Below, in pieces: positions 3 to 33,761 of a stretch of DNA of 33,761 bases; position 1 is the stretch's first letter, and each line of letters starts with the position of its first letter. Below the pieces are notes generated by a model that saw only the letters and a program-made list of their open reading frames with translations, made no database searches and had not been told where the DNA came from. Location of the stretch: assembly GCA_032249135.1 (NCBI GenBank), contig JAVVGL010000021.1, positions 1 through 33,761 of the forward strand, in the 5' to 3' direction. A program made the translations under genes and the position numbers. Source of the stretch: Candidatus Calescibacterium sp. GTDB lineage: Bacteria > Calescibacteriota > Calescibacteriia > Calescibacteriales > Calescibacteriaceae.

Positions 3-3000
3 AAAGGAAGGGTTTCTGAGGTTCAAGATCCCAAAGGAAGACCTTTTAGAATTGAGCATTTTGAAGGAAGTGGGAACCAGATTTTTGTTAAGGTTTCAAC
101 AAGGCTTGGTTATTCTCTGGAATATACAGTAGATGAACAGTTTGTTTCAACTTTGGCAGTAAAAGATGAGATAGGAGCTGAAAGAAATTACTCATACGAT
201 GAGAGAGGGAATATAACAAAGTATAAAGATGCAAGAGGGAATGAGTGGAGATATGAATATGATGAAAGTGGAAACCTTGCAAAGATAGAAGATCCTATGG
301 GTTATACTGAGAAGTTTTTCTATGATTTTTCAGATCTTCTCACAGCGCAAGTGAGGAAAGATGGAAATATAGAAAGGTACTTTTACGATAGAGGAAACCT
401 TGTGAGGAAAGTAGATGCTATGGGATTTGAGTGGAGAGGCGAATACAATAACTTGGGACTTTTAGTAAAAGAGGTTTTACCGACGGGTTCTGAGATAAGG
501 TACGAATATGACTCTTTTGGGCATATAAGAAGGAAAATAGATGCACTTGGTAATGTTTGGAAATACGAATACGATGTTTTAGGAAAGCTTGTTTTGGAGG
601 AAGACCCAGCAGGAAACAGAACAAGATATGAATATGATATGTTAGGTAGGATGACAAAGAAAATTGATGCTGTGGGAGGAGTATTAGAATTCAGATATGA
701 TGCTTTTGGGAACCTTGTTGAACAAAAAGACCCTCTTGGGAACACGAAAAAATACTACTACGACTTTTTGGGGAATTTGACAGCAGAGGTAGATCAGGTT
801 GGTAATGTGGCTTTGAAAGAATACGATGCGGAGGGTCAGAAGATAAGGGAGACGGATTTTAAAGGAAATTCTGTTTTGTTTGAATATGATGGAGCGGGAA
901 GACTTGTAAGATATGGCAATCAGCTCGGAGGAGAGACACTGAACGAATACGACAAAGAAGGAAATCGTGTGAGAGTAAGACATCCTTCTGGATTGATAGA
1001 GGAGTCTCAATATGATGCTCTCGGAAGAGTTATTTTCACAAAAGTGTTTGATCCCGGAACTGGGATTTCATACGAGGCAAGATATGAGTATGATGCACAA
1101 GGGAACACAATAAAGATAGAATCAGGAGGGCTTGTGTCAAGATACTTTTATGATGCATTAGGTAGGGTTGTGAAGGAGATAGACCCTGCCGGAAATGAGA
1201 GAACTTATGAATACGATCCTGTAGGTAGGTTGGTAAGGAAAGTAGAGGCAGATGGAACAGAGGTAAGGTATGAATATGATGCGAACGGAAACCTTGTTAA
1301 GGTTGTGAATCAAGATGGAACAGAGGTAAGATATGAATATGATGCAGTGGGAAGACTTATAGCTTTCATAGATGAGGCGGGAGGGAGGACAGAATATGGA
1401 TATGATGGAGTAGGCAGAATAATTTTTATCAAAGACCCATCGGGGGCAATAACAAGGTATGAGTATGATATTGCTGGGAGGTTGATAGCGGTTCAAGATG
1501 GAGAGGGGAACATAACAAGATATGAGTATGATGCAAGGGGGAATGTGATAGCGGTGATAGGACCTGAGGGAGAGAGAACAGAGTTCAAACTTGATGAGAA
1601 TGGTAATGTGGTGGAGATTTTAGACCCTGAGGGGAATATAACAAGATTTGAATATAACAGCATGGGGCTTTTGAGCGCGCAGGTGAGTCCAGAGGGATCA
1701 AGGACAGAATACTTTTACGATAGTGTGGGAAGGTTGATAAAGACGGTATATCCGAATGGTAGTACAGAGTGGTTTGTGTATGATGGATTTGGTAGGGTGA
1801 TATTGAAGGGAGATGCGGAAGGGAGAGTTGTGGGATATGAGTATGATAGCTTTGGGAATCTTGTGAAGGTGATATATCAAGATGGGGTTGTAAATATGTT
1901 TTACGACAATTTAGGAAGGCTTACAAGGAAGGTGTATCCAGATGGGAAGGAAGTAGAATATGGATATGACAGGCTGGGGAGGTTGATTTTTGTGAGAGGG
2001 AGTGGAGCAGAAATAGAGAACGAATATGATGTTATGGGGAGGTTGAAGATGAGGACATTCAAGATTAGGGGAATTTTGCCGGTATCAGTTGAGTATGGAT
2101 ATGATGAGGCTGGGAGGAAGGTTTTAGTTAAGGATTTGTGGGGAGAGACAAGATTTATTTACGATAAAGCAGGAAGGGTAAGATCTATACAATCTGAAGG
2201 CATTAAGACTGATCTTTTCTATGATAAAATAGGCAGAAAAGTTCTAATTAGGTACCCGAATAAGGTAGATGTAAGGTATGAGTATGCAGGCACATGTAAT
2301 AATGGTTGTGAAAAGGCTCGTATCAAAAGTATAGAGATTGTGAAAGGATCAGAAACGTTATGGTACGCAAAATATTTATATGATAGGAGAGGACTTATAA
2401 CCGAAATAGATGAAATAAAAAGAAAAATAACGAATATTTACGATAATTCAGGTCGGCTCACAAAATCAGAAGTTTTTGACAAAGAAAATCCCAAGAAAAG
2501 TTATGCATTTACTTTCAGTTATGATGAGTTAGGAAATAGGAAATTTTTTGAACTTTACTCGCAGGTTGAGGGACTTTTTGACCCAAGATTTCCTCATCCA
2601 AAAGATAAGGAGCCAGTCCTGAAGCATCCTGTGAAAATCAATTATACATACAATAAAGCAGGTAAAATATTGGAGCTTTTATCAGTTAGAACAAAAAATA
2701 ATAAGTTTTGGTACAAAGTAGAGTTTAGCTATAACTTGCGTGGGAAAATCACAGAAAAAAGGGTATTTTTAGATGAAAATATATATGCGACGCGATATAA
2801 TTACGATTTTGAGAACAATTTGGTAGATGTTCTATTTCCTGATGGTCAAAAGATGGAGTTTCTAGTTTTAGAAGGATATATTCTCAAAAGGAGATATATT
2901 GATAAAGACGGAAAGGGAAAGGTATTGTATTTGATATACGATGATGATAAAGTTCTTTTGGAATTGGATGAAGGAGGAAAACCGGTAAAAAGATATGTTC

Positions 3001-3797
3001 TGACAGATTTAGGAGAGATTTTATGGGTAAGAAAATTTAGGGATGAAGGATGTGAGGAGAAAGGGGGCAAGGGAAAGGGAGATAATGATAGGGGAAATAA
3101 TGAAGTTTGTGAAAATAGACGGGAATATGTGTTTTATCATTATGACCATTTTGGTTCAGCGGTTATTCTTACGGATTCTTCAGGTGGGATAGTGGCAGAG
3201 TATGAATACTCGCCGGGAGGAGACATTCTTCGAGCTCAGGGACCTAAAGCTAAAAAGAACTTATATACTTTCAAAGGGAAGGAGTATATTCCTGACCTTG
3301 GGATGTACATTCACAAAAATGCATTATTATACGATCCAAGGATAGGAAAAAAATATAAAGAATGTGAAGATCCCAAGATACCAATTAGTATTGATTGCAA
3401 GACAATAAAGAAAGGCGAAAGAGATGAAAGGATAACGAGGTTTTGTATTCTAACAAGGGAAGCATATGAAAGATTAATACAAGAGATTTCAAAGCCACCA
3501 TATCGTAATAAATGGAGGACTTATGACATTCAAACTTTTAATGAAATTATGCGGCGTAAATATTGGGAACAGAAGATAATGATAAGATTTGAAGAAGTAA
3601 AAAATATGGTTTATGAAGTTTTTGAAAGGGCTGGTTTTGAGTTTAAGGTTGAGCCGTTGCGTAAAAACGGTTGTGCTATTTGGATAGAGATCGTAGAAAA
3701 ACCTTTCTTTAAAACAAACTTACCATGTTTACCTTTTGTTGGATGTCGTGTATTGGTTTGTTACAGAATCACAATAGGTCCTATAACAATTAGATAA
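3..3797 (+). CDS. Rhs/YD-repeat protein (5'-partial) with degenerate core end and ~150-aa variable C-terminal tip
   Basis: Dozens of YD repeats (YEYDxxGxL). The frame is open from base 3 (KGRVSEVQDPKGRP...), so the 153 TTG is not the real start. Rhs core motifs YHYDHFGS...AEYEYSPGG...YDPRIG. Confidence 0.93.
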   Translation, partial: KGRVSEVQDPKGRPFRIEHFEGSGNQIFVKVSTRLGYSLEYTVDEQFVSTLAVKDEIGAERNYSYDERGNITKYKDARGNEWRYEYDESGNLAKIEDPMGYTEKFFYDFSDLLTAQVRKDGNIERYFYDRGNLVRKVDAMGFEWRGEYNNLGLLVKEVLPTGSEIRYEYDSFGHIRRKIDALGNVWKYEYDVLGKLVLEEDPAGNRTRYEYDMLGRMTKKIDAVGGVLEFRYDAFGNLVEQKDPLGNTKKYYYDFLGNLTAEVDQVGNVALKEYDAEGQKIRETDFKGNSVLFEYDGAGRLVRYGNQLGGETLNEYDKEGNRVRVRHPSGLIEESQYDALGRVIFTKVFDPGTGISYEARYEYDAQGNTIKIESGGLVSRYFYDALGRVVKEIDPAGNERTYEYDPVGRLVRKVEADGTEVRYEYDANGNLVKVVNQDGTEVRYEYDAVGRLIAFIDEAGGRTEYGYDGVGRIIFIKDPSGAITRYEYDIAGRLIAVQDGEGNITRYEYDARGNVIAVIGPEGERTEFKLDENGNVVEILDPEGNITRFEYNSMGLLSAQVSPEGSRTEYFYDSVGRLIKTVYPNGSTEWFVYDGFGRVILKGDAEGRVVGYEYDSFGNLVKVIYQDGVVNMFYDNLGRLTRKVYPDGKEVEYGYDRLGRLIFVRGSGAEIENEYDVMGRLKMRTFKIRGILPVSVEYGYDEAGRKVLVKDLWGETRFIYDKAGRVRSIQSEGIKTDLFYDKIGRKVLIRYPNKVDVRYEYAGTCNNGCEKARIKSIEIVKGSETLWYAKYLYDRRGLITEIDEIKRKITNIYDNSGRLTKSEVFDKENPKKSYAFTFSYDELGNRKFFELYSQVEGLFDPRFPHPKDKEPVLKHPVKINYTYNKAGKILELLSVRTKNNKFWYKVEFSYNLRGKITEKRVFLDENIYATRYNYDFENNLVDVLFPDGQKMEFLVLEGYILKRRYIDKDGKGKVLYLIYDDDKVLLELDEGGKPVKRYVLTDLGEILWVRKFRDEGCEEKGGKGKGDNDRGNNEVCENRREYVFYHYDHFGSAVILTDSSGGIVAEYEYSPGGDILRAQGPKAKKNLYTFKGKEYIPDLGMYIHKNALLYDPRIGKKYKECEDPKIPISIDCKTIKKGERDERITRFCILTREAYERLIQEISKPPYRNKWRTYDIQTFNEIMRRKYWEQKIMIRFEEVKNMVYEVFERAGFEFKVEPLRKNGCAIWIEIVEKPFFKTNLPCLPFVGCRVLVCYRITIGPITIR
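1250..1345 (+). repeat. Near-perfect internal duplication of a YD unit (DGTEVRYEYDA x2, 63-nt period)
   Basis: agatggaacagaggtaagRtatgaatatgatgc at 1250-1282 and 1313-1345, one mismatch. Confidence 0.9.
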
Positions 3798-3812
3798 ATA
3801 AAAACAGAAAAA

Positions 3813-4481
3813 ATGAGAAAAATGAAAAAAATCATGGTTTTCACAGTGATCTTATTCTTTGCCCCATCCAAAGTGATAGGAGCAGAAATATTAAGTCCAT
3901 ATAATGCATATTTAATTGAAAAAGGTGAAATAGCATTTGGATTCATCAAATATCCATTAACTTTAGGAATACACGAAAGACTTAATTTATTCCTCTTCCC
4001 CCTAATTTTTCCTTTCGTCAAAATGGCTGGCTTTGGAATGAAAATAAAATTATTTGAGAAAGGAAGTTTTTTCTCATCAGGAGAAATTGCTTACTATCGT
4101 GACTTTACATTACCTGAATCGGGTATGGGAATAATTTCAATTACATCTTATAAGATAAAAGAGGGTAGAATTTTATCGTTTGGGATATTCTTTGCATCTT
4201 TTAAAACCCTTTCTGAAAGTTACAAATTTGAGCATACATATACTTTTGGTGTTGTACCATTTGTACTTGAGATAAAAATCATCAAACAATTAGCTTTTAC
4301 GATCAAATCTTCGGCTCAGATTTCTCCACTTGGAAGCAGATTATCTCGTGGAGAAACTTCTCTAATATCTTCTTTAGTTGTAATATCAGATTTTATGCAA
4401 TTTGAAATAGGACCTGAAATACATAACTTTAAAGAGATTATGGCATATTTTGACCTTGTTTTCAGGTTCAAGATTTTTTAG
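3813..4481 (+). CDS. Exported, probable outer-membrane beta-barrel protein in the immunity-gene position after Rhs tip 1
   Basis: Signal peptide (MKKIMVFTVILFFAPSKVIGA; start may be ATG 3822), alternating hydrophobic strands, aromatic C-terminus YFDLVFRFKIF. Confidence 0.6.
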   Translation: MRKMKKIMVFTVILFFAPSKVIGAEILSPYNAYLIEKGEIAFGFIKYPLTLGIHERLNLFLFPLIFPFVKMAGFGMKIKLFEKGSFFSSGEIAYYRDFTLPESGMGIISITSYKIKEGRILSFGIFFASFKTLSESYKFEHTYTFGVVPFVLEIKIIKQLAFTIKSSAQISPLGSRLSRGETSLISSLVVISDFMQFEIGPEIHNFKEIMAYFDLVFRFKIF

Positions 4482-4486
4482 AAAAA

Positions 4487-5326
4487 ATGAATTTAGAACA
4501 CAAAATTTATGAGATTTTCTCGAGCTCAGCTCAGATTTTTTACGATAGAGCCGGAAGGAGAATACTTTTGAGGTATCCGAATGGTGTAGAAACAAGGTAT
4601 GTCTATGGAGGAAATGGAGGGAATTGCAACGGGAATGGATGCCGAAATCCAAAACTTACAAAAATTGAAATTACATCAGGTGATGGAAAAGTGATCTGGA
4701 ACACAAAATACTCATACTCAAAAGGAGGATTTATAGTTGAGGAAGATCAGATCAAAAAGAAAATAAGATATGAATATGACAAAGATGGACAAATCAAAAA
4801 GGCAGATGTTTTTGTGAAGGAGAATCCAAAAAGAAGCTATGGATTTTTGTTTGAGTATGACAGGGTGGGTAACAGGGTAGCGATGGAGCTTTACTCCCAA
4901 GTTGATGGTTTATTTGACCCACGCTTTCCAAGACCAAAAGACAAAGAACCAGCTTTAAAGCATCCTATAAGATTTGAATACGCATATAACAGAGCAGGAG
5001 AGATTTTAGGATTTGTAGCAAGAAGAACAAAAGATGGATCATTTTGGTATTCAGCAGAGTTCAAGCATGATTTGAGAGGGAACGTTTCGCAAAAGAGAGT
5101 AATTTTGAGTGATGGAAATTCATACACAACAAATTACCTTCATGATTTTGAAAACAGGCTTTGGAAAATTTTATTCCCAGGAGGCGAAGAAAGTGAGTTT
5201 TTGATACTTGAAGGGTTAGTTTTGAAGCGGAGATATCAAGATGAAGAAGGGAAGACGAAAGAGATAAACTTGATTTATGATGGAGATCAAGTTTTGTTAG
5301 AGTTAGATGAGAAGGGGGGCCAATAA
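4487..5326 (+). pseudogene. Orphan Rhs module, 5' fragment (frameshifted at G6 run 5314-5319)
   Basis: Colinear with the Rhs1 distal core (YSQVDGLFDPRFPRPKDKEPALKHP vs YSQVEGLFDPRFPHPKDKEPVLKHP). One extra base restores LDEKGGPIKRYVL, matching Rhs1 LDEGGKPVKRYVL. Confidence 0.85.
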
Positions 5327-5337
5327 AGAGGTATGTT

Positions 5338-6696
5338 TTGGGAGTTGAAAGAGATGAGATATTGTGGGTGAAGAAGATAAGGCAAGATGATGAAGATGGG
5401 GAAGGAGTAGGAGACAAAGGCAAGGGTAAGGGTAAAGGCAAAGGAAAAGGAGGTGAGAGAAGAGATTATATTTTCTACCATTATGATCATGGAGGGAATG
5501 TGGTGATTTTGACAGATTTTTCAGGGGATGTGGTAGCGGAGTATGAGTATTCACCGTTTGGAGAGGTGTTAGAGGCGCAGGAACCCGAGGCAAAAAAGAA
5601 TAGGTTTTTGTTTGCGGGGAGATACTACATATCAGAGGGAGGGATATATGATTTTAGGGCGAGGATGTTGGATGGGAAGCTTGGGAGATTTTTGGAAAGA
5701 GAGCCCTTAGTAGGAGAGAGGATGGGGTTTTTATCTTTATATTCATATGCGAGGAACAACCCAGTAAATTTCAAAGACACAACAGGACTTTATTTTGAAA
5801 GTGTGAGAAATTGGGCAGAAGATACATTTCGGCACTGTTTAACTGCTTACTTAAATTCAGTTGCACTGAATGGTATACCATGTATGGATCATAGAATAAG
5901 TTGGGCTCCCGCTGGTGTGGGGGATGCATTCAGATTATTGCGAAATGTAGCGCGTTCTTTTCATCCTCTTCCCGATAACATATGGAAGGGAAATGGGCTC
6001 GGTGTAATAGCAAAAAATAGATTCTGGAGCCAATTTCTCCCCAGGCTAAAAGATAGCATGATAAGAATGGTAAATGAGGAAAGAGGCAGATTCAAAAGAG
6101 CTATTGACAGATGGTGGATACCATCATCTACCATAAATAGAATTACTAATGAATACGTTTTCAATAATATTGAAAGAGTTATTCGCAATTTACCTCGTAG
6201 AACAGATATTATTCTTCCAAGTAGCAAAAAAGAAGAAATGAAAGCAGGATTAATAGGAGGGCTATTAGGAGGTGGAGCAGGTGCTGCAATTGCTGGGGCA
6301 TTATCGTTATCCCCACCACTATTTATTGTAGCTACAATTTGGAGTTTTATGATAGGTGAAGTAATAGGGAAAGCGATTTATAGGTGGCTTGCAAAAGAAG
6401 TTGAGAGGATAGCGCGTCGGGAGGCGGACAAACTTCAAAAAGATTTACTTTCCCTTATTGTAGGAAATTATAGAGTTAAAGTTATTGCACTTTGTTTCAG
6501 GGGATGGAATACAGAATGTATACCCATAGAGATTCCTGGTCTTGGTCCTTTATCATCTTCTTTTGTTGCTTACTTTGATATTCTACCCTTCCATCCAACT
6601 AACTATATTTATCACTATTCCGCAAAAGTTCTCTTCGGTGTAGAAGCTCTTAACTTTTACAATACACTAAGATATGAATGGGGGTTATCATGGTAA
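5338..6696 (+). CDS. Orphan Rhs module, 3' fragment: Rhs-associated core plus ~300-aa tip with glycine-zipper hydrophobic hairpin (putative membrane-active toxin)
   Basis: YHYDHGGN, YEYSPFGE, GRFLEREP, YSYARNNPVNFKDTTGL. Tip contains AGLIGGLLGGGAGAAIAGALSLSPPLFIVATIWSFMIG. Confidence 0.85.
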   Translation: MGVERDEILWVKKIRQDDEDGEGVGDKGKGKGKGKGKGGERRDYIFYHYDHGGNVVILTDFSGDVVAEYEYSPFGEVLEAQEPEAKKNRFLFAGRYYISEGGIYDFRARMLDGKLGRFLEREPLVGERMGFLSLYSYARNNPVNFKDTTGLYFESVRNWAEDTFRHCLTAYLNSVALNGIPCMDHRISWAPAGVGDAFRLLRNVARSFHPLPDNIWKGNGLGVIAKNRFWSQFLPRLKDSMIRMVNEERGRFKRAIDRWWIPSSTINRITNEYVFNNIERVIRNLPRRTDIILPSSKKEEMKAGLIGGLLGGGAGAAIAGALSLSPPLFIVATIWSFMIGEVIGKAIYRWLAKEVERIARREADKLQKDLLSLIVGNYRVKVIALCFRGWNTECIPIEIPGLGPLSSSFVAYFDILPFHPTNYIYHYSAKVLFGVEALNFYNTLRYEWGLSW

Positions 6697-7433
6697 GGTT
6701 TGCTTTTTTGCTAAAATCCGTTATTCTTCTGGCTTTCCCTATTTTTTCTCATATTAGAGCAGAAATGAAAGGAGATCCTTTTACCGATGTTATAGTGGCT
6801 GGAGTAGAATCTGCCGTTGCAGATTTTCTTATACCAAAATTCAAACCTGTAAGATTACTAAGTCTTCATAGAGGATATTTTTTACCGGGATGGGAGGAAG
6901 GAAAATCTTTGACAATAGGTTATTCATTTGCTATTGGTGCGGAAGGTTCTCATCCATTTCTTTTCTCTGTTTCCTTCAACAGAACTTATGAAAGAGTAAA
7001 TCTTGAATTTTCGGTTTGGCCTATTTCTTTCCAGTTTTTGCCAAAATTCAGACTCATCCGTATAGGTAACATAGGAGGGCTTGCTTTTGGAGCAGGTCCA
7101 ATTTTAAGCTTCTCAAAATTCCCGATATCAGGAGAATTTTCTTTGGATTTGATTTTGAAATCAAGATCCCCAGGAGTAGTTGTATTTTTTGGTCTTCGCT
7201 TTATGGATAATTTGATTGAAGTAAATGAAAGTGTAATTACTCCTTACGTTCCAATATACAATCTCAGAATAATATTAGGTTATGCCCTCAGTATTAAAGA
7301 TAAGTATAAGAGATATTTTTCTGATAAATTCATCTTAGATAAGTTTATTCTTGAGCAGCAGCTTTTAGGGTTTGGAGAAAGTGGAGTGTTTATGCTTTTT
7401 GGATTCGCATTCAATATACGCTTTACTGATTAA
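6690..7433 (+). CDS. Exported, probable outer-membrane beta-barrel protein in the immunity-gene position after Rhs tip 2
   Basis: Overlaps the Rhs2 stop; GGGGG precedes ATG 6690 (alternative ATG 6678). Signal peptide MVRFAFLLKSVILLAFPIFSHIRA, amphipathic strands, ends FGFAFNIRFTD. Confidence 0.55.
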   Translation: MVRFAFLLKSVILLAFPIFSHIRAEMKGDPFTDVIVAGVESAVADFLIPKFKPVRLLSLHRGYFLPGWEEGKSLTIGYSFAIGAEGSHPFLFSVSFNRTYERVNLEFSVWPISFQFLPKFRLIRIGNIGGLAFGAGPILSFSKFPISGEFSLDLILKSRSPGVVVFFGLRFMDNLIEVNESVITPYVPIYNLRIILGYALSIKDKYKRYFSDKFILDKFILEQQLLGFGESGVFMLFGFAFNIRFTD

Positions 7434-7462
7434 TTATTAGAGAATAAAAGAAAATTTTTATT

Positions 7463-8119
7463 ATGAAGGCTAAAAAATCAAAATTTGTAATGGTAACCTA
7501 CTTTATCATTCAGATCACAGTTTTTGTATCTGCGATAATATTATTCTCATGTGCGGCAAGTAGAGAAGAGTTAATCGAACAATATGAAAGAAAGGAAATA
7601 AGAGAGGAAAGTTGCGATGGAAAAGATGAAAATGAAAATGGGTTGATAGATGAAGGATGTCTCTTGTGGTATTACGAATTCCAATCGAGAAATTGGTTAT
7701 ATTCACCGAAAATTTGTTCAAATAGAACAATAGTACTATTTTCTTGTTCTCCTTCTTACAGCAATGAATATGTTTCCTCAGTAACAGTTTATGGATTAAG
7801 ATTAGATGATGGAAAGATAGCATGGCAATATAGTATTAGGGTTAAAGATTGTTTTTTGCCACTATCTTATGATCATCCATTAGAAGTTTCAGATTTATAT
7901 GGTGATGGGAAGGATGAAGTAATAATCAGTTATGGTCAAGAAAAAGCTTTAGATGTAATAAGTTGTGACGATGGAAAGCTTCTTTGGTCCTTCAAGGAAG
8001 ATGGGCAAAAAGAAAATCATCCATTTATCTTCTTCAACGGTCCTTATGTAGAAGATATAGATTATGATGGAAAAATTGAGATAGTAGTAAAGAGAGCAAA
8101 CATAATAGGATGGAGATAA
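7463..8119 (+). CDS. Lipoprotein with MopE-like metal-binding motif and PQQ/FG-GAP propeller blades, N-terminal fragment of a split gene
   Basis: Lipobox ILFSC; EESCDGKDENENGLIDEGC; DLYGDGKDEV and DIDYDGKIEI; DGKIAWQY and DGKLLWSF. Confidence 0.7.
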   Translation: MKAKKSKFVMVTYFIIQITVFVSAIILFSCAASREELIEQYERKEIREESCDGKDENENGLIDEGCLLWYYEFQSRNWLYSPKICSNRTIVLFSCSPSYSNEYVSSVTVYGLRLDDGKIAWQYSIRVKDCFLPLSYDHPLEVSDLYGDGKDEVIISYGQEKALDVISCDDGKLLWSFKEDGQKENHPFIFFNGPYVEDIDYDGKIEIVVKRANIIGWR

Positions 8120-32164: not shown

Positions 32165-32287
32165 AAATTTATTTTATGGCAATGCCTTGTCGCAATCATC
32201 TAAAATTATAATTTCTTCCCTAAATTCAAAAATTTTGCAAAATTCCGTTTTAAGCTAAATTCAATTATTACAATTTGTTTAATTTAT

Positions 32288-33761
32288 ATGTTCATAACTA
32301 CAAGCTTTAAACTCGTTGTAAGTAAAGATGAGAAAGAACAAATTCTCAAACTTATGAGGAATTTCTCTTCTGCTGTAAGATTCTCTTACAAAAGACTCCT
32401 TGAGGGTTTCACCACTTTGCAAACTTACACAATAACAAGACAGAAATTCCCAGAACTCAATTCTCATTATGTGAATTGCGCAGTTGAGAAAGCAAGAGAA
32501 ATTTTTCAAAGTTGCAAAGCAAGAGGACAGAATCCAAAAAAGCTCATATTTGGTGGTAGAACCTTATTTGAAAAGCTCAAAAAGAATCATCTTCAAGGAA
32601 AAAGATTAAAGGAACTAAAAAGAAAATGGAAAGAAAAGAGGCAGGGAACTCTGATAAGCATAGGCGCAAAGCACATAACTCACAAAGGTAACCTTAATTT
32701 AAGATTTATCCCTGCTGAAAAAGGTAAAAACAATCTTCTGTTAAGAATAGCTTTGAAGAACAGGAAATTTATATTAGCAAAGGTAAAGAGAGATTTGAGC
32801 GGAAAATCAGATAAATGGGCTTTATTCTTGGCAAAAATCTTATCTGGGGAGCAATTCCCTTACACCGTTGAGCTAAAATTAAAAGATAGTCAAATCTATG
32901 GATTTGTCAGGTTCTCATTAGATGTTCCTCCACAAACAATTACAAAATCAAAAGGAGTTATAGGGATAGATGTGAATGCAAGACCTTTTCATCTTGCTCT
33001 TGCAGAGGTTTCTCCCGATGGAAATTTACAAAGCTATAAATCAATTTATCTTTCCCATCTTTTGAAATGCAAAAGCAGAAACAGAAAAGAGTATGAGGAG
33101 TGGTTGATAGCTCATGAGGTTATAAAATTTGCGAAAGAGAAAGGAAAAGCTATTGCAATTGAGGATATAAAAAATCTTCCAAAAGGAAAAAGAGGAGATG
33201 GTAAAGCAAAGATCAGAAAAATCTTGCAATTTTTCTCTTATAGGAGGATACTGAAAAAGATAGAGAGTTTAGCAAATCAGGAGGGTATAGAAATAGTAAA
33301 GGTAAATCCAGCATTTACATCTTTAATAGGTATGATGAAATATTGTCCGCAGTATTTTATAGATAAAGATGTGGCAGGAGCGTATGTTATAGGTAGGAAA
33401 GCATTAGGGTTTCAAGAGAAAATTCCAGAGAACTACAAAAAGCTTCTAAAAAGCCAGATTTACATTCAATATGCACTATGGAGATTAGGGAAAATGGAGG
33501 AGGAATTGAAAAATAAGTTGAATCAAGAGAAAAACAAATACAAGGTAAATGGAATAAAGAGAGATTTGAGGAGGTTAAAGAGGGAGAGGAAATTTTTGGA
33601 GAGATTTTTGGTTGAAACCAATAGAAAAGAAAGCTCTCAGAGTGAGCCAGAGACCCAAAAGCAGGGGAACCTGAGGAAGGAACCTGTGAGGGGTCCGGAA
33701 AGCGGGCAAAAACTCTGGCGAGTTCTGAGGGTAGCCTTCGCTATACCTCTCCTTGGGAGGT
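32288..33761 (+). CDS. tnpB: IS200/IS605-family TnpB-related RuvC nuclease (3'-partial, at least 491 codons), not in the ORF track
   Basis: Hand translation from ATG 32288 is open to the window end: MFITTSFKL...LMRNFSSAVRFSYKRL...IFGGR...KGNLNLR...GVIGIDVN (D228)...IAIED (E292)...VNPAFTS...DKDVAGAYVIGR (D361). Confidence 0.9.
   Translation, partial: MFITTSFKLVVSKDEKEQILKLMRNFSSAVRFSYKRLLEGFTTLQTYTITRQKFPELNSHYVNCAVEKAREIFQSCKARGQNPKKLIFGGRTLFEKLKKNHLQGKRLKELKRKWKEKRQGTLISIGAKHITHKGNLNLRFIPAEKGKNNLLLRIALKNRKFILAKVKRDLSGKSDKWALFLAKILSGEQFPYTVELKLKDSQIYGFVRFSLDVPPQTITKSKGVIGIDVNARPFHLALAEVSPDGNLQSYKSIYLSHLLKCKSRNRKEYEEWLIAHEVIKFAKEKGKAIAIEDIKNLPKGKRGDGKAKIRKILQFFSYRRILKKIESLANQEGIEIVKVNPAFTSLIGMMKYCPQYFIDKDVAGAYVIGRKALGFQEKIPENYKKLLKSQIYIQYALWRLGKMEEELKNKLNQEKNKYKVNGIKRDLRRLKRERKFLERFLVETNRKESSQSEPETQKQGNLRKEPVRGPESGQKLWRVLRVAFAIPLLGR
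33633..33761 (+). ncRNA. Structured RNA overlapping the tnpB 3' end (candidate omega/reRNA scaffold, partial)
   Basis: 33633-33652 pairs with 33713-33732 (18 bp with a tandem GA internal loop), enclosing two GNRA-capped hairpins. Two further hairpins follow. Confidence 0.65.

Follow-up and report, generated by a model that had tools for sequence, protein, structure and literature searches.

The window analysed here, a 33,761-nt stretch of DNA that forms contig C21 of a Candidatus Calescibacterium sp. genome (G000; 2.10 Mb, 51 contigs, 87.5% complete), breaks off within a 1.7-kb insertion element that is present in about four copies. The sole open reading frame (ORF) of this element is a tnpB-like gene, and no DDE transposase of its own is encoded. 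The gene lies on the plus strand, to which all window coordinates below refer, with codons 1–491 of 525 at 32288..33761 (ORF 32288-33760, open at the window end), as identified by ORF reading, family scans, the overlap with a second contig, and the model and fold matches of a paralog. The final 54 nt of the window recur unchanged at the end of contig C14, and joining the two contigs over this overlap, the extension proposed in the initial annotation, yields an intact ORF of 525 codons; the at least 491 codons with D228, E292 and D361 recognised in that annotation are all present. A DNA search of G000 located a full paralog of 527 aa on contig C4 (~90% nucleotide identity), partial copies at contig ends (5' parts on C5 and C41; 3' parts on C51, C42 and C14), and short end fragments of the element elsewhere. 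The tnpB copies of the genome are 87-94% alike, and that on C41 is broken by stop codons.

The element block common to the copies is ~1.69-1.72 kb long, starting 105 nt upstream of the ATG and ending 3-20 nt past the stop codon. Its terminal inverted repeats are 13 nt long, TGCCTTGTCGCAA at the left (32183-32195) and TTGCGACAAAGC(T) at the right. In the window copy, they are flanked by a 9-bp direct repeat, TTATGGCAA, the target-site duplication, whose left copy lies at 32174..32182 and whose right copy follows immediately beyond the right end, on C14; TTATGGCAA is likewise repeated at L195, a metagenome locus sharing these flanks. Within the left terminal region (32183..32199), positions 32184-32199 (16 nt) match one end of an IS5-family element on contig C24 exactly. 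The left-end untranslated region that follows (32200..32287), conserved between copies, presumably contains the promoter. The C24 element (C24:2292-3340; L012:793-1841) is 1049 bp long, possesses the same inverted repeat (16/16 nt identical at one end) and its own 9-bp duplication, and contains a 243-aa open frame matching the IS5-family model NF033579 (2.2e-24) and PF01609 (2e-7). A DDE gene was found inside the tnpB element in 0 of about 100 copies examined. The tnpB-like gene, although without tnpA, is not an orphan: it is situated between IS5-type inverted repeats in an element flanked by a target duplication, and the element is probably moved in trans by an IS5-family transposase.

The inverted repeats were also considered as subterminal hairpins of the IS200/IS605 type, a candidate that was rejected, since they are true inverted repeats, accompanied by duplications and common to DDE elements. 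A further derivative lies on contig C37 (C37:4133-4310; L015/L008), where a ~190-bp deletion form resembling a miniature inverted-repeat transposable element keeps the left end of the tnpB element and its last ~60 nt, including the right repeat, and holds no gene.

The window protein is a TnpB-family member with near certainty. It matches the TnpB-related domain model TIGR01766 (4.1e-13, residues 263-345) and TIGR01765 (1.4e-11, residues 4-77; 44.2 bits, slightly under the cut-off of 47.25), and scores 38.7 bits against the Cas12f2 model NF049972, with a cut-off of 450. The best 120 relatives in the database show 87-94% identity, with lengths of mostly 523-527 aa; close ones are named 'IS605 OrfB family transposase' by one source, and the database relatives bear the precomputed label PF27229. 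In a search of representatives, the family comprises 1623 members at E<=1e-3, 675 at <=1e-10 and 64 at <=1e-30.

The three acidic residues of the RuvC active site, D228 in RuvC-I (GIDVN, 32969..32971), E292 in RuvC-II (AIEDI, 33161..33163) and D361 in RuvC-III (DKD[IV]AGAYVIGR, 33368..33370), are invariant in 15/15 close relatives, bearing out the TnpB-like RuvC nuclease with an intact triad that had been proposed from the window alone. Across 42 full-length representatives of the whole family, D228 and N230 are each kept in 42/42, and E292 is kept in 40/42, with Asp in the other 2. At position 361, His predominates (31), followed by Asp (10) and Gln (1), the Asp belonging to the window protein and its near subclade. 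The loss of RuvC catalytic residues that marks TldR and other nuclease-dead proteins is not seen, the triad being intact. Simultaneously, the place of the canonical C4 zinc finger is taken by a short linker (T344-I358, 33317..33361). No CxxC follows the 'NPAFTS' motif of the window protein, CxxC between the 'TS' motif and RuvC-III occurs in 0/42 representatives, and the Pfam Cas12f1-like TNB model (PF07282) is matched over positions 1-29 of 60 only (19.5 bits against a cut-off of 26.3), so that the missing finger of the initial annotation stands.

A search of the PDB with the 42-member profile reached Cas12f1 (7e-12) and TnpB chains, with alignments confined to the region from RuvC-I to the 'TS' motif. 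The C4 paralog was modelled with AlphaFold2 on the 42-member alignment; the model has a predicted local distance difference test score (pLDDT) of 88.6 and a predicted template modelling score (pTM) of 0.83, with weak stretches at residues 303-305, 453-471 and 520-527. In a whole-chain comparison of this model by Foldseek, the best match is AsCas12f (E 7.7e-11; template modelling scores 0.47/0.57 over ~470 columns), followed by other Cas12f, Cas12k, the TnpBs of ISFba1 and ISDra2, and Fanzor2, with a probability of 1.00. The model contains the wedge (WED), recognition (REC) and RuvC arrangement of TnpB and Cas12f.

Beyond D361, the protein continues for 130 residues in the window and 164 in the full protein. 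The Pfam family DUF2192 ('uncharacterised protein conserved in archaea') matches residues 354-428 (window 33347-33571; 4.3e-6, above cut-off), spanning RuvC-III and the helices after it. A subclade-specific helical insert resembling a coiled coil (residues 390-450, 33455..33637) forms helices 390-413 and 417-450 in the model and is missing from most distant relatives (alignment A2). The C-terminal tail might be a mere read-through of an RNA region, and this was rejected for residues 472-517, which are modelled with high confidence and include W479, kept in 35/42. Furthermore, synonymous third-position changes occur in the tail between G000 and its homolog from a genome of the same genus (G001; 51% identity), among them changes in the PLLG codons. 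The terminal ~10-45 residues vary, are absent from Caldanaerobacter relatives and may be incidental. The long C-terminal extension first described is real in its length and its long helices; part of it, however, is coding sequence that overlaps the guide-RNA-like scaffold.

This scaffold is encoded by the last ~265 nt of the element, overlapping the last ~77 codons. The 5' half lies in the window at 33633..33761, over codons ~449-491, where the consensus structure and its covariation place helix 1 complete and the beginnings of helices 2 and 4; the pseudoknot hairpin and the right inverted repeat lie on C14. The last ~200 nt of the element have 55-60% G+C, compared with 25-40% elsewhere in the element, and for the terminal 281 nt of the C4 copy the folding energy is -130.4 kcal/mol (z = -5.57). 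The 3' regions were aligned for 34 of 55 usable sequences, picked to reduce near-duplicates and representing all three types of element end described below. The RNAalifold consensus comprises 5 helices with a total of 44 pairs, of which 28 show compensatory changes. Standard pairs fill 98.1% of the cells, compared with 82.1% after shuffling and 39-55% when the partner is slid by 1-3 columns; cells changed on both sides number 233 against 67 expected, and the covariation score is 0.535 against 0.206. These values were reached by 0/500 shuffles, and they are not probabilities, as the rows are related and the structure is derived from the same alignment; the margin is large nonetheless. A search of Rfam at permissive thresholds with four copies gave no family covering the scaffold and one chance-level match to an unrelated small RNA.

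Downstream of a conserved RGGTTAG motif, a hairpin presents a loop that can base-pair with the element's terminal 6-8 nt. Such pairing, of at least 6 contiguous pairs at a constant offset, is present in 50/55 elements and in 13/220 control windows; the five misses comprise a mutated loop or terminus in L036, L106 and L080 and two 5-bp cases. Since the loop pairs with the last nucleotides of the element, the scaffold ends exactly at the transposon boundary, a position also seen in the guide RNAs of TnpB and Fanzor; a 3' RNA with a terminus-pairing loop is a hallmark of guide-RNA systems. Judged from this pairing and the covariation, the 3' RNA is very probably a guide-RNA scaffold ending at the right boundary, and the RNA-guided mode proposed in the initial annotation gains support from it.

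Relatives in named genomes were collected by a scan of species-representative genomes with a 9-sequence alignment, which confirmed 157/187 candidate stretches, the best 80 being kept; a query of genome contigs with a single protein had found none. Among the best 80 of the 157, the hosts include Thermocrinis, Hydrogenobacter, Sulfurihydrogenibium, Thermus, Caldanaerobacter, Thermodesulfobacteriaceae and others. The nuclease comes from thermophiles, with relatives in thermophile groups and matching DNA in hot-spring metagenomes. The elements exhibit three types of ends. In type a (Thermocrinis, Hydrogenobacter and G001), the tnpB-like gene is the sole ORF of a 1.64-kb element with ~20-nt inverted repeats, GAGGCTGTTCTAAAAATCC, and 10-12-bp duplications. 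Two genomes of 1.5 and 1.3 Mb contain 53 and 63 occurrences of the GAGGCTGTTCTAAAAATCC repeat, against 1 each for a reversed-pattern control, and these occurrences include ~300-bp miniatures and a 934-bp element with a PF01609 ORF (1.6e-12) and a 10-bp duplication; in both Thermocrinis and Hydrogenobacter, the tnpB-only element and the 934-bp PF01609 element have a common inverted repeat. Type b, seen in other Aquificota, Thermus and Caldanaerobacter, lacks inverted repeats; its right end consists of a hairpin with [TG]RACCAGG after it. Close relatives of this type stand at 46-50% identity, and in two of them (L058 and L029) a gene with MerR helix-turn-helix and Resolvase domains, an IS607-type TnpA, lies directly upstream. 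Type c is that of the window, of which L028 has a variant repeat.

A quick maximum-likelihood tree (IQ-TREE; 59 rows, rows <470 aa left out, SH-aLRT support, midpoint root) unites the inverted-repeat forms in one clade with support 100, nested among the IS607-type rows. Within that clade, 23 type-a rows and G001 are sister to the window's paralog and L028. The predicted RNA loop changes together with the transposon end. In IS607-type ends, loop and terminus are CCUGGU:ACCAGG and CCAGGU:ACCUGG; in the Aquificota-type repeats, GAGGCUG:CAGCCUC and GAGGUUG:CAACCUC; in the window type, GCUUUG:CAAAGC; and in L028, GCCUUG:CAAGGC. These pairings show that the RNA loop follows the sequence of the transposon end even between transposon superfamilies.

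Several of these loci have features of their own. Among named relatives, the one nearest to the window's protein clade lies on L028, a 3226-nt contig of a metagenome-assembled genome labelled Aenigmatarchaeota; its ORF is frameshifted near the end, and the place of the contig in an archaeal bin reflects either horizontal transfer or a binning artefact. In Hydrogenobacter (G041) and Thermocrinis (G042; L031-L099, L119-L135), two element families exist on one ~20-nt inverted repeat, one tnpB-only with ~300-bp derivatives and the other a 934-bp DDE element with 100-300-bp derivatives. The DDE-type miniatures have cTTGACA 8-10 nt outside one end and no target duplication, and the tnpB-type ones differ. 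On contig C128 of G001, the start of a second, decayed copy lies directly downstream of the intact homolog (L017:561-790); this copy has a left repeat of its own, another right-end RNA module lies further along, and the insertions are tandem or nested.

We favour, with moderate confidence, the reading in which an RNA-guided nuclease module rides a non-autonomous IS5-type element. The transposon would be moved in trans by the DDE transposase of an IS5-family element of the same genome. Its last ~265 nt would be transcribed into a structured omega RNA (right-end element RNA) scaffold, and the RNA would run on into the flanking DNA, with the 9-bp target duplication and the sequence downstream of it serving as the guide. 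The resulting ribonucleoprotein would recognise TTTAT next to a guide-matching sequence, which is the unoccupied allele, and cut it. Repair from the occupied copy would then restore or spread the element (restorative homing). RNA-guided DNA cleavage by the window protein, taken as a claim of its own, is held a little less firmly, at somewhat better than an even chance.

The target side of this scheme was approached through independent insertions, for which the alignment of genomic copies, suggested at the outset as a way to define the ends and the transposon-adjacent motif (TAM), was carried out on metagenomes. The scan confirmed 155/433 candidate stretches, and 80 loci of 78-95% identity were kept, with the left end found in 75 and the right end in 55. 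Distinct insertions with both flanks number 44, and the duplication is kept, by the criteria applied, in 22/44. Some insertions without a duplication have one flank in common with another locus (such as L171 and L222), which points to exchange between copies, and in Hydrogenobacter sp. the left flank of each of L035 and L066 matches the right flank of the other, a swap that is best described as recombination between two copies, probably an inversion. Because copies recombine in this way (L035/L066), duplications go missing, and their absence is explained at least partly by flank exchange between copies (L171/L222, L035/L066).

The insertions follow the register TTTAT-N-[N9]-T|GCC...AGC|T-[N9]. 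TTAT is present at -15..-12 in 41/59 distinct left flanks, compared with 0-7 at any other offset, and TTTAT in 30/59; by position, the counts in the 59 left flanks are T-16 41, T-15 55, T-14 58, A-13 47, T-12 44 and T-1 58. On the right (41 distinct flanks), only +1 is conserved, being T in 40, and there is no mirrored ATAA. In the window, TTTAT lies at 32168..32172, one base from the target duplication, and the 59 left flanks of the same element family make it the candidate TAM. Among the only four IS5-type ends of G000, TTAT is shifted by one base in one and absent from three, which is too few for assigning the motif. In the Aquificota type, GNCA stands directly before the duplication in 12/14 elements with a clean duplication; the count derives from 26 distinct elements, two rows having been dropped as the same miniature elements matched in reverse.

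The same flanks bear on a second explanation, in which the ribonucleoprotein is RNA- or TAM-guided and is not a homing nuclease, selecting or orienting the DDE insertion site as Cas12k does in CRISPR-associated transposons (CAST), or acting as a DNA-binding regulator. Here, the insertion orientation is tied to an asymmetric motif at a fixed distance, an uncommon behaviour in a DDE transposase whose inverted repeats are near-identical, the GNCA of the Aquificota elements directly precedes the duplication, and Cas12k is among the good fold matches. However, the near clade retains the acidic triad without exception, unlike Cas12k or TldR-type dead proteins, and a new target cannot match the guide prior to insertion. 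Moreover, Aquificota elements without tnpB (DDE insertion sequences and miniatures) also lie 8-11 nt from a TGNCA-like motif, so that the motif may be the transposase's. Such a helper or regulatory role is considered unlikely, although it is the strongest of the alternatives to the homing nuclease. A motif that serves as both transposase target and TAM is familiar from IS605.

Element-free and transcribed forms of the C4 locus were met in public data. The C4 copy was found in 20 public runs from 20 studies, all hot-spring or sediment metagenomes, of which 6 are metatranscriptomes. In two RNA runs (X17 and X18), one contig each joins the C4 flanks (L002:1366/3085), skipping the whole element with 4 other letters between; therefore, element-free alleles of the C4 locus exist. 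No target duplication surrounds the occupied C4 site itself, whose right flank occurs in L171 together with another left flank. Depth at the C4 locus, taken as the summed word depth of assembled contigs from four RNA runs, which give no strand, ends or true levels, is highest over the scaffold region (L002:1362-1609) when set against the rest of the ORF (1672-2973): 3,600-7,800 against 49-900 in X15, 260-690 against 13-164 in X16, 39,000-58,700 against 56-1,860 in X17, and 2,300-3,900 against 14-477 in X18. The scaffold depth is thus ~10 to several hundred times that of the rest of the ORF in 4/4 metatranscriptome runs, and just outside the right end (bin 1300-1361) the depth is <35; low depth in parts of the C4 stretch is not to be read as absence. 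These depths hint at an abundant stable RNA from the scaffold region. RNA contigs at L002:1394-1401 also carry variant right ends, for instance a GCCGGC-type terminus instead of CAAAGC, which suggests further repeat variants in the community.

The presence/absence polymorphism given by the element-free C4 allele in two runs also speaks against a third possibility, that the gene is a functionless decaying relic whose frame is open by chance or by weak constraint from the overlapping RNA. The 6-13% divergence of the G000 copies, the stop codons on C41 and the degraded appearance of the partner transposase fit decay. The length and 87-94% identity of the best 120 database relatives, the catalytic residues invariant in 15/15 and the synonymous third-position changes of the C-terminal tail do not, and a relic is improbable, somewhat more so than the helper role. 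It is highly improbable that the TnpB-like protein is itself the transposase, an RNase-H-fold D-E-D enzyme making the repeats and duplications, as might be supposed for the sole ORF of a multi-copy element bounded in this way in a genome with no TnpA, since the same repeats bound DDE (PF01609) elements in three genomes with duplications of equal length, relatives at 46-50% identity reside in IS607-type elements with a MerR-resolvase TnpA and no inverted repeats, and the 3' RNA with its terminus-pairing loop is conserved.

Several observations nonetheless weigh against the homing-nuclease reading itself. The protein scores 48.5 and 52 bits against the NCBIfam guided_TnpB model NF040570, below its cut-off of 100. 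On the side of mobility, the C24 ORF lacks ~70 N-terminal profile positions, which no upstream frame supplies, and the other G000 copies of the IS5-type partner are fragments only, on C17, C34, C20, C1 and C40. Current mobility in G000 is therefore doubtful, as the sole full IS5-type partner is truncated and the others are fragments, and the imperfect likeness of the tnpB copies with one of them broken points in the same direction. The flank motif may be the transposase target, the nuclease TAM or both, and the depths above come from assembled contigs with the limits stated. Cut-and-paste DDE excision leaves a break in any case, so the benefit of homing is less obvious, a point raised in the accessible text of a review (PMC13565253). 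Finally, the active rearranged ortholog named in the accessible part of PMC10278001 is RII-r5, with none named there for RIII-r4.

The neighbourhood of the element consists of transposon ends and housekeeping genes. The upstream gene encodes an acetyl-CoA synthetase, and no tnpA lies upstream, as first annotated; neither a Y1 transposase (PF01797) nor a serine recombinase (PF00239) was found in G000, at 87.5% completeness. An empty site for the window insertion was not obtained: in G001, of the same genus, the 3' end of acetyl-CoA synthetase is 90% identical, and the sequence beyond is not syntenic with the C14 flank. At the end of contig C20, a stretch (C20:15-983) with a weak match to the guided_TnpB model (2.9e-4) and 3 stops may be a pseudogene of another TnpB lineage.

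A broader proposal can be put forward tentatively, at somewhat less than an even chance. A TnpB-omega RNA module of a thermophile clade may have moved from IS607-type into at least two IS5-type transposons by re-tuning a 6-8-nt loop to the new right terminus, with a TAM (TTTAT here, TGNCA in Aquificota) that would coincide with the orientation-specific DDE target motif. If true, this module capture would be a prokaryotic counterpart of Fanzor capture, and either homing pays for cut-and-paste elements or the ribonucleoprotein helps choose or orient the DDE insertion site. One protein clade with IS607 ends and two IS5-type repeats, in which the RNA loop follows the terminus, amounts to a natural experiment in partner switching. 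In practical terms, the locus gives a hot-spring kit comprising an intact 525-aa protein with the canonical Asp at RuvC-III, a ~265-nt scaffold whose 3' boundary is precise, a TAM candidate of 5 nt and the defined transposon ends, the Asp active site being noteworthy within a mostly His-bearing clade. If active at high temperature, the protein would be a candidate for a compact thermostable editor; if it is not a cutter, the orientation-specific insertion beside a motif points to a new role in DDE transposition.

With respect to the published record, the accessible text of Altae-Tran et al. 2023 (PNAS, PMC10691335) describes a TnpB major clade, RIIIr-4, that loses the C4 zinc finger and carries His at RuvC-III; it is argued there, from conservation, to be probably active, and its largest group is linked with RHH/MazE-like genes. 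The family studied here fits both features, and its alignment suggests that the window subclade is an Asp-bearing branch of, or next to, RIIIr-4. Nety et al. 2023 (PMC10278001), in the part available, tested 59 TnpB orthologs at 37 °C with RIIIr-4 sampled among them, and excluded TnpBs associated with other transposases. No bench characterisation of the RIIIr-4 clade was found in the literature open to text search. The clade, which the initial annotation had called little studied, is thus already catalogued and, as far as seen in the searchable literature, apparently without biochemical characterisation; it is a characterised clade in the first sense only. The accessible text of PMC10691335 also describes DDE-associated TnpBs between inverted repeats, in six DDE branches, and solo TnpBs with ends nearly identical to those of transposase-bearing elements, and the DDE partners of TnpBs are summarised as ISL2, IS630 and IS1031 in the available part of Kojima 2026 (PMC13565253). 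Because these two sources describe such cases, a solo TnpB between DDE-type ends is an already known arrangement. The clade and this kind of arrangement being known, what is new here is the sole-gene 1.7-kb element, the repeats shared with an IS5-family element, the covarying RNA, the loop-terminus pairing, the candidate TAM and the concentration of metatranscriptome contigs over the scaffold region.

Among known systems, RIIIr-4 resembles the window family in the TnpB fold, the missing C4 finger between RuvC-II and RuvC-III, the RuvC-III His of 31/42 representatives and the serine-recombinase associations that occur within the same family. However, the window protein and its near subclade possess Asp361 instead of His, and none of the RHH/MazE-like genes ascribed to the largest group in the accessible text was noticed here. 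The DDE-associated and solo TnpBs of PMC10691335, as far as its accessible text goes, are likewise situated between inverted repeats matching those of a DDE-transposase element, with the tnpB 3' end <=250 bp from the transposon end. They differ in that a DDE gene is inside the element in none of the copies here, and the end-swapping in one protein clade with a matching change of the RNA loop is a feature of the present elements for which no description was found in that text.

In the case of Fanzor1 and Fanzor2* (Yoon et al. 2023, PMC10711439, accessible part), the TnpB homolog is also the sole gene of a non-autonomous cut-and-paste element, the guide-RNA scaffold includes the terminal inverted repeat, and the guide starts at the duplication or beyond it. 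Fanzors reside in eukaryotic transposons with terminal inverted repeats and target-site duplications, whereas the window element is prokaryotic; the pseudoknot-like loop-terminus pairing kept here is reported absent in Fanzor1 in the same part of that paper, and the window protein has its RuvC-II glutamate in the canonical place and no zinc finger. Cas12f (AsCas12f, 8j3r/8dzj) provides the best structural match of the C4 paralog model, but the window gene is transposon-borne and multi-copy, no CRISPR array was noticed near any copy, though no search aimed at one was made, and the sequence similarity is confined to the stretch from RuvC-I to the 'TS' motif. The TnpBs of ISDra2 and ISFba1 (8exa, 8h1j, 8iaz) share the WED-REC-RuvC fold, a guide RNA at the right end overlapping the ORF and a 5-nt AT-rich motif in the left flank. 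Compared with these canonical proteins of ~400 aa, which have a C4 finger and a Y1 TnpA and lie in elements with no inverted repeats and no duplication, the window protein is 525 aa long, bears a helical insert and carries a conserved C-terminal helical module in place of the finger.

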